From Escherichia phage vB_EcoM-G157lw, in the sequence record OK331996.1: a stretch of 64,000 nucleotides of DNA, one strand, 5' to 3'. Positions 5,865-6,561 of this stretch are shown one piece after another. The translations under genes were made by a program, and so were the position numbers. The notes below the pieces were generated by a model that was not told the DNA's origin, ran no database searches, and saw only the letters and a list, made by a program, of their open reading frames with translations. Numbering within the stretch: position 1 is the first letter of the stretch; each line of letters starts with the position of its first letter.

Positions 5865-6106
5865 TGTCTGAACAAACTATTGAACAAAAACTGTCTGCTG
5901 AAATCGTAACTCTGAAATCTCGTATTCTTGATACGCAGGACCAAGCGGCTCGTCTGATGGAAGAATCCAAAATTCTGCAAGGAACTTTGGCTGAAATTGC
6001 TCGTGCAGTAGGTATCACTGGAGATACTATTAAGGTTGAAGAAATCGTTGAAGCTGTCAAGAATCTTACTGCTGAATCTGCAGATGAAGCAAAAGATGAA
6101 GAATAA
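5864..6106 (+). CDS. 57A: tail fibre assembly chaperone gp57A, 80 aa
   Basis: Coiled-coil 80-aa protein after gene 1; ATGA-type overlaps on both sides. Confidence 0.8.
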
Positions 6107-6561
6107 TGGAATTTAAAGACTTTTCAACGGGTCTTTATGTAGCAGCTAAGTTTTCAGAATTAACACTTGATGCGCTGGAAGAACTTCAGCGCTCTTTACG
6201 TGTTCCTAATCCAGTTCCTAGAGAAAAAATTCATTCGACTATATGTTATTCAAGAGTAAATGTTCCGTATGTTCCATCAAGCGGAAGTTTTGAAGTAGCT
6301 TCTTCTGGACATTTAGAAGTATGGAAAACACAAGATGGATCTACTCTTGTACTTGTACTAGATTCTGAATATCTGCGCTGTCGACACATGTATGCGCGGG
6401 CGCTAGGTGCTACACATGATTTTGACGATTACACACCGCATATAACATTGTCTTATAATGTTGGGCCCTTATCATTTAGCGGTGATGTACAAATTCCGGT
6501 CGTATTAGATCGTGAATACAAAGAACCTCTTAAGCTTGATTGGGCAGACGATTTAAAATAA
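6106..6561 (+). CDS. 57B: 2H phosphoesterase 57B (Acb1 anti-CBASS cyclic-nucleotide phosphodiesterase family), 151 aa
   Basis: Two H-x-T motifs (H43-S-T45 and H112-I-T114) diagnostic of the 2H fold; position after 57A. Confidence 0.8.

Follow-up and report, generated by a model that had tools for sequence, protein, structure and literature searches.

Gene 57B of a T4-like Escherichia phage encodes the anti-CBASS 2H phosphoesterase Acb1

We report the identification of the open reading frame at positions 6106-6561 (plus strand) of Escherichia phage vB_EcoM-G157lw as, with near certainty, acb1 (T4 gene 57B) of a Tequatrovirus, encoding a 151-amino-acid, metal-independent 2H phosphoesterase that acts against CBASS immunity. 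The reading frame lies in a 64,000-nucleotide stretch of sequence record OK331996.1, referred to here as the window, and all coordinates are counted from its first letter. The gene itself is already known, being a textbook-level anti-CBASS gene found here in a relative of T4, and the result matters mainly for annotation, where the label 'RNA ligase' given to this protein by PHROG 755 and by the T4 RefSeq record is misleading.

The coding sequence opens with ATG and runs for 151 codons plus a stop, and its assignment draws on the list of open reading frames, on Pfam, on the PDB and on identity with T4. PF23474 (Anti-CBASS protein Acb1) is its sole Pfam match, scoring 202.7 bits where the gathering cutoff is 27 (E = 2.6e-60), with protein residues 8-149 placed on profile positions 1-144 of 144, that is, on the full model; NCBIfam has no model matching either Acb1 or the Acb2 homologue described below. 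A sequence search of the PDB returns the Acb1 of Erwinia phage FBB1 (7T26/7T27; E = 4e-62, 68% identity over 141 aligned residues). We further observe that the protein is identical, at 100% of its amino acids, to residues 2-152 of T4 gp57B (NP_049750.1), the T4 gene, at 73952-74410 of NC_000866, translating to the window protein with one extra N-terminal methionine. Since T4 57B has been proven to be Acb1 both biochemically and genetically (PMC9117128), the proposal of the first-pass annotation that 57B is Acb1 is borne out. The sole antisense reading frame within the gene (6246..6389, 47 amino acids) is without support and is a mechanical one.

At the nucleotide level the gene differs from that of T4 at 11 positions, of which 11 are synonymous and 0 nonsynonymous, a pattern that indicates purifying selection. 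The junction of the 57A stop and the 57B start (6104-6108) reads TAATG here, with TAA as the stop, as against ATGATG in T4, with TGA as the stop. The TGA of T4 creates the ATGATG and hence the extra methionine annotated there; with TAA only the second ATG is present, showing that the ATG of T4 Met2 suffices to start Acb1. Over 1.9 kb around the gene, identity is 99.6% to Escherichia phage NiC89 and ~97% to T4, so that the window comes from a Tequatrovirus close to T4 and not from T4 itself. A tblastn search with the Acb1 protein against 50,697 phage records gives matches in 1,470 of them, 498 at 99% identity or above.

For the T4 protein, which is identical, published work has established the chemistry and specificity of the enzyme as well as its anti-CBASS phenotype. 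A 3'3'-cGAMP-degrading activity was purified from T4-infected cells by activity-guided fractionation, traced to gene 57B and named Acb1 (Hobbs et al. 2022, PMC9117128); the activity is seen ~15 min into T4 infection, infected lysates no longer cleave cGAMP once acb1 is deleted, and T4 delta-acb1, whose growth is normal where CBASS is lacking, suffers a defect of more than 300-fold where it is present (PMC9117128). Crystal structures of FBB1 Acb1 have the 2H phosphoesterase fold; in Acb1, Y12, W74, F107 and W147 stack on the bases, E141 contacts adenine specifically, a lid at the C-terminus (residues 145-152) shuts over bound 3'3'-cGAMP, and the scissile phosphate lies over the HxT/HxT tetrad of H44, T46, H113 and T115 (PMC9117128). 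The reaction is metal-independent and proceeds in two steps through a cyclic phosphate intermediate, activity is lost in the H44A mutant, and the H44A/H113A double mutant is catalytically dead (PMC9117128). In a HIDEN-SEQ transposon screen 57B was conditionally essential on a CBASS host, where insertions were depleted, and dispensable without CBASS.

Database names for the 57B protein vary: 'RNA ligase' (PHROG 755, T4 RefSeq and many records), 'hypothetical protein', 'RNA ligase/cyclic nucleotide phosphodiesterase' and, rarely, 'anti-CBASS protein Acb1'. Taken at its word, the first of these, which many phage records carry, would make the protein a LigT-like 2'-5' RNA ligase or an RNA-repair cyclic phosphodiesterase working on tRNA or mRNA ends and not on immune signals, and this reading gains something from the membership of LigT-type enzymes in the 2H superfamily and from the position of acb1 ~1.4 kb upstream of the phage tRNA array. 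The name is, however, a transferred LigT-family label and not a tested activity. Searched with the family profile, the sequences of the whole PDB yield Acb1-type proteins and the Pam3 portal protein C-terminus alone, with no LigT or CPDase to E = 10, and the T4 protein was itself identified as the cGAMP-degrading activity, is needed for that cleavage and can be dispensed with when CBASS is lacking. We therefore hold an RNA ligase to be very unlikely and reject it, the profile finding no LigT/CPDase match in the PDB and the T4 biochemistry contradicting the label.

The identification of the protein as Acb1 extends to its catalytic and ligand-contacting residues, which are numbered here one below their T4 counterparts. 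The first-pass annotation had pointed to two H-x-T motifs about 70 residues apart, and both can be read in the translation, as H43-S-T45 (6232..6240, plus strand; T4 H44/T46) and H112-I-T114 (6439..6447, plus strand; T4 H113/T115); they lie 69 residues apart, and the protein has no other H-x-[ST] match. Two such motifs might also occur by chance in an unrelated small protein, since at least two HxT are carried by ~2% of composition-matched shuffles (2.25% of 100,000 composition-preserving shuffles), so that the pair is by itself weakly significant and takes its meaning from homology. The homology to Acb1 is, however, full-length at E ~1e-60 and exactly these four residues are invariant throughout the family, which refutes a chance occurrence and leaves it a vanishing probability.

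That the protein is Acb1 is equally clear from the alignment with the FBB1 enzyme, in which H43, T45, H112 and T114 fall on the catalytic tetrad of the 7T26 sequence, the two motifs lying against H-T-T and H-I-T, respectively. The match of H43 and H112 to the Acb1 catalytic residues is exact, and the earlier reading of these histidines, which would have failed had they not aligned in this way, stands. The stacking aromatics Y11, W73, F106 and W146 and the adenine-reading E140 are all present (T4 Y12, W74, F107, W147 and E141), and the C-terminal lid, residues 144-151 including W146 (T4 145-152 and W147; 6535..6558, plus strand), is identical to that of T4. At the functional positions Y, H, T, H, T, E and W are shared with FBB1 Acb1, and at the two remaining stacking positions each protein has an aromatic residue. 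A template-free, single-sequence AlphaFold2 model of the protein has a mean pLDDT of 37.9, too low to be of use; the 2H fold, a U-shaped cleft of central beta-strands across which the two histidine motifs face one another, can safely be inferred from the 68% identity to the solved structures 7T26/7T27.

We have also aligned eight sequences, those of the window and T4 with those of Serratia phage Muldoon, Escherichia phage Skers (Krischvirus), Aeromonas phage 60AhydR15PP, Acinetobacter phage DLP3, Vibrio phage PC-Liy1 and Salicola phage SCTP-2. Identity to the window Acb1 across the six other-phage homologues runs from 66% down to 30%. H43, T45, H112 and T114 are invariant in 8/8, as are G9, Y11, R93, P111 and E137, and the invariant tetrad thus spans six genera of the Straboviridae and the Salicola jumbo phage.

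The substrate range of the T4 enzyme has a bearing on whether the allele in the window is a working one. T4 Acb1 also degrades 2'3'-c-di-AMP and cA3 and, as published, it thereby triggers Panoptes guard systems; in the Panoptes activation assay the T4 protein shows no activity once residues 145-152 are removed, and phages evade Panoptes by inactivating acb1. Natural and selected loss-of-function alleles are accordingly known, such as the nonsense mutation of Bas43, and an inactivated or decaying acb1, as in some Tevenvirinae that escape Panoptes, could be envisaged here as well. The frame in the window is nevertheless full-length, lid included, it retains all catalytic and ligand-contact residues and it shows 0 amino-acid differences from active T4 Acb1; the sole N-terminal difference, the extra methionine of T4, falls outside the crystallised core G8-D152. 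The intact sequence excludes a decayed allele, to which we assign an exceedingly small probability.

Intact acb1 is the last gene of a unit with genes 1 and 57A. Gene 1, the first of the unit (dNMP kinase; 5139..5864, plus strand; PF21448, E = 1.4e-105, and the T4 annotation), is followed by gene 57A, for the tail-fibre assembly chaperone (5864..6106, plus strand; PF17594, E = 5e-51), the TAA stop of which overlaps the ATG of acb1 by one base. Downstream lies ipI, for internal protein I, an adjoining anti-restriction gene (6639..6923, plus strand; PF11634 IPI_T4, E = 1.3e-51). IPI is an inhibitor of GmrS/GmrD, and its adjacency to acb1 has been read as an anti-defence cluster (PMC9117128).

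Two middle promoters, both of which we observe to be identical to those of T4, precede the gene on the plus strand. P1 (5087..5113) has the MotA box taaTGCTTCA at 5087-5096, an 11-nt spacer with TGt and the -10 element TATAAT at 5108-5113; P57A, within gene 1 (5603..5629), has the MotA box attTGCTTTA at 5603-5612, 11 nt and the -10 element TAAATT at 5624-5629, and its predicted start, converted from T4 coordinates, is ~5636. The MotA-box consensus is (a/t)(a/t)(a/t)TGCTTtA at 12+/-1 bp from the -10 element (PMC2988021), which P1 of the window fits in both box and spacing, and P1 and P57A are mapped MotA-dependent middle promoters in T4, with starts at 75393 and 74877 (PMC2988021 Table 1). A late-promoter-type motif, TATAAATA, is also found inside gene 1 (5501..5508, plus strand), at the same offset as in T4. 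It occurs 11 times in the window against 10.6 expected, which is the level of chance, and as the count does not exceed chance it is position, conservation and the published middle/late expression that suggest a late-promoter role for this copy. In a transcriptome meta-analysis the expression of 57B/acb1 is 'predominantly middle/late'; expression of acb1 thus sets in with the middle period and continues beyond it.

These data amend the description of the locus as a late structural operon 1-57A-57B beside the internal-protein genes. The 1-57A-57B unit and the adjacency of ipI are upheld by the Pfam matches; 'late structural' is inaccurate, since the promoters P1 and P57A are middle promoters and there is no virion component among the dNMP kinase, the tail-fibre chaperone and Acb1.

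The arrangement of the unit is conserved well beyond T4. The order gp3 (tail-completion), dNMP kinase, 57A and 57B is found in 5/5 Straboviridae relatives, and the 3-1-57A-57B block is kept in Tequatro-, Muldoon-, Krisch-, Tulane-, Lazarus- and Schizotequatrovirus; the junction of 57A with 57B, at which the two genes touch or overlap, recurs in six Straboviridae genera. The gene 3' of 57B varies among these phages, with ipI in that place only in Tequatrovirus, and in the jumbo Salicola phage SCTP-2 the context of the acb1 homologue is unrelated.

The spacer between acb1 and ipI (6562-6638), which differs in sequence between the window and T4, holds a 9-bp hairpin formed by UGAUGGAGA and UCUCCAUCA (6584..6611, plus strand; fold z = -2.6), and a promoter scan places an early-promoter-like element, TTTACA-17-TATTAT (6575-6603, plus strand), so as to overlap it. 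The T4 spacer hairpin has a fold z of -3.6. In T4 and two IMG/VR relatives the arms of the hairpin differ (GAUGAGGUAGUG with its partner arm, and UAGGGU/ACCCUA) and the pairing is kept, which looks like compensatory change; a pattern scan of IMG/VR with the acb1 3' end gave 4 loci, a number too small for a formal covariation test. A scan for intrinsic terminators came up empty between acb1 and ipI, and the hairpin is not a classical terminator, as no U-run follows it. It could instead be a processing or 3'-stability element for acb1 transcripts that arise by read-through. A Rfam scan of 4000-10000 at gathering thresholds returned only 11 tRNAs, with nothing in or beside acb1.

The spacer between ipI and trna.4 (6924-7000, plus strand) carries a second copy of this arrangement, sharing the upstream block AAAGTTGTTTACA, which is followed there by a -10 element, TACTAT, and a nested hairpin (fold z = -3.7).

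Taken together, the fixed position of acb1, its putative coupling to 57A and the apparently compensated spacer hairpin give a hint of something further, namely that Acb1 may be an ancient, positionally fixed member of the 3-1-57A-57B block and more than a mobile anti-defence-island gene. It might then have a second, CBASS-independent role in the middle or late period, on other 3'-5' cyclic nucleotides, on nucleotides with a 2',3'-cyclic phosphate or on RNA ends, or a regulated 3'-end or processing element might set the dosage of Acb1 against Panoptes-type guards. We regard this extension as speculative and improbable.

For the established anti-CBASS function the following course of events can be proposed. 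Transcription of acb1, together with genes 1 and 57A, would start from the MotA-dependent middle promoters and probably also from a late promoter, so that activity would be available from mid-infection, and the TAATG overlap probably couples translation of acb1 to that of 57A. On the published evidence from the identical T4 protein, the enzyme binds 3'-5'-linked cyclic di- and trinucleotides containing at least one adenosine (3'3'-cGAMP, cUA, cAAA, cAAG), with Y11, W73, F106 and W146 stacking on the bases and E140 reading the adenine N6. The lid (residues 144-151) closes over the ligand, which is strained, and over the H43/T45/H112/T114 tetrad the adenosine 2'-OH is set for attack on the 3'-5' phosphodiester. 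By acid-base catalysis the enzyme then cuts 3' of the adenosine and, by way of a 2',3'-cyclic phosphate intermediate, yields a linear product such as GpAp. With the messenger made by the CBASS CD-NTase removed, the effectors (nucleases, phospholipases and others) would stay off and abortive infection would be escaped. By analogy with T4, we infer that vB_EcoM-G157lw puts acb1 to the same use in vivo.

Comparison with known systems places the protein closest to T4 Acb1, with which it agrees in every one of its 151 residues, in having genes 1, 57A and ipI beside it, in the promoters P1 and P57A and in its placement with respect to the tRNA cluster; T4 differs in its extra methionine, in the 11 synonymous substitutions and in the acb1-ipI spacer. 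FBB1 Acb1 (7T26, apo; 7T27, with a 3'3'-cGAMP analogue) shares the HxT/HxT tetrad, Y12, E141 and W147, and aligns with a single one-residue gap, but has F and Y at the stacking positions that are W73 and F106 here and in T4. More distant is the phage 2H PDE-9 (9Q2G/9Q2Y, deposited as 'Anti-CBASS protein Acb1'), which falls in the structural group of T4 Acb1 and in which both histidine motifs align, although the sequence match is a distant one (E = 0.004 with a single sequence, 2e-13 with a profile). This enzyme degrades 3'3'-cGAMP (bioRxiv 10.1101/2025.08.21.671373). Its lid is N-terminal, whereas that of Acb1 is C-terminal, and it is poor on 2'3'-c-di-AMP and so does not trigger Panoptes, unlike T4 Acb1.

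Classical 2H phosphoesterases possess two HxT/S motifs and carry out metal-independent transesterification through a 2',3'-cyclic phosphate. They comprise the LigT 2'-5' RNA ligase, the CPDases and the viral 2'-5'-oligoadenylate phosphodiesterases (coronavirus NS2a, rotavirus VP3), and their substrates are RNA ends or 2'-5' oligoadenylate, whereas those of Acb1 are 3'-5' cyclic oligonucleotides. The strategy of eliminating a nucleotide second messenger is shared with Apyc1 (an anti-Pycsar protein of the MBL fold), with the poxins and with the Acb2 sponge; these are nevertheless unrelated to Acb1 in fold and chemistry, Apyc1 being Zn-dependent and Acb2 sequestering its ligand without cleavage.

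The Acb1 profile also matches residues 498-611, within the C-terminal 115 residues, of the 621-amino-acid cyanophage protein deposited as 'Pam3 portal protein' (PDB 8hds_A; E = 6e-8), whose H-V-T and H-I-S align with the two catalytic motifs of Acb1. This match suggests an Acb1-like 2H domain fused to the Pam3 phage portal protein.

Downstream of ipI, three small reading frames (6997-7858, plus strand) precede the tRNA array, in the places that trna.4, trna.3 and trna.2 take in T4; these neighbours of two anti-defence genes have no match in Pfam. The tRNA array (7956-8976, plus strand) consists of 11 genes, for Gln, Leu, Gly, Pro, Ser, Thr, Met(CAT), Tyr, Asn, His and Arg, against 8 in T4, the extra ones being Tyr, Asn and His, and the homing endonuclease gene segB that interrupts the T4 array is absent.

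A second anti-CBASS gene is predicted elsewhere in the window. A tblastn search with T4 Vs.4 locates a homologue of vs.4/acb2, for a cyclic-oligonucleotide sponge, at 16892..17158 (plus strand), with 96.6% identity over 88 amino acids and a match to the Acb2/Tad1 hairpin domain (PF24729, E = 1.3e-19); the equation of vs.4 with acb2 is taken from the literature. The window would therefore encode both a degrading (Acb1) and a sequestering (Acb2) anti-CBASS protein, ~10 kb apart. With an intact, T4-identical Acb1, an Acb2 homologue and the adjoining IPI, the phage is predicted to be resistant to most CBASS systems that use 3'-5'-linked, adenosine-containing cyclic di- or trinucleotides and, by virtue of the same intact acb1 allele, to be sensitive to Panoptes-type guards that respond when decoy cyclic nucleotides are lost.
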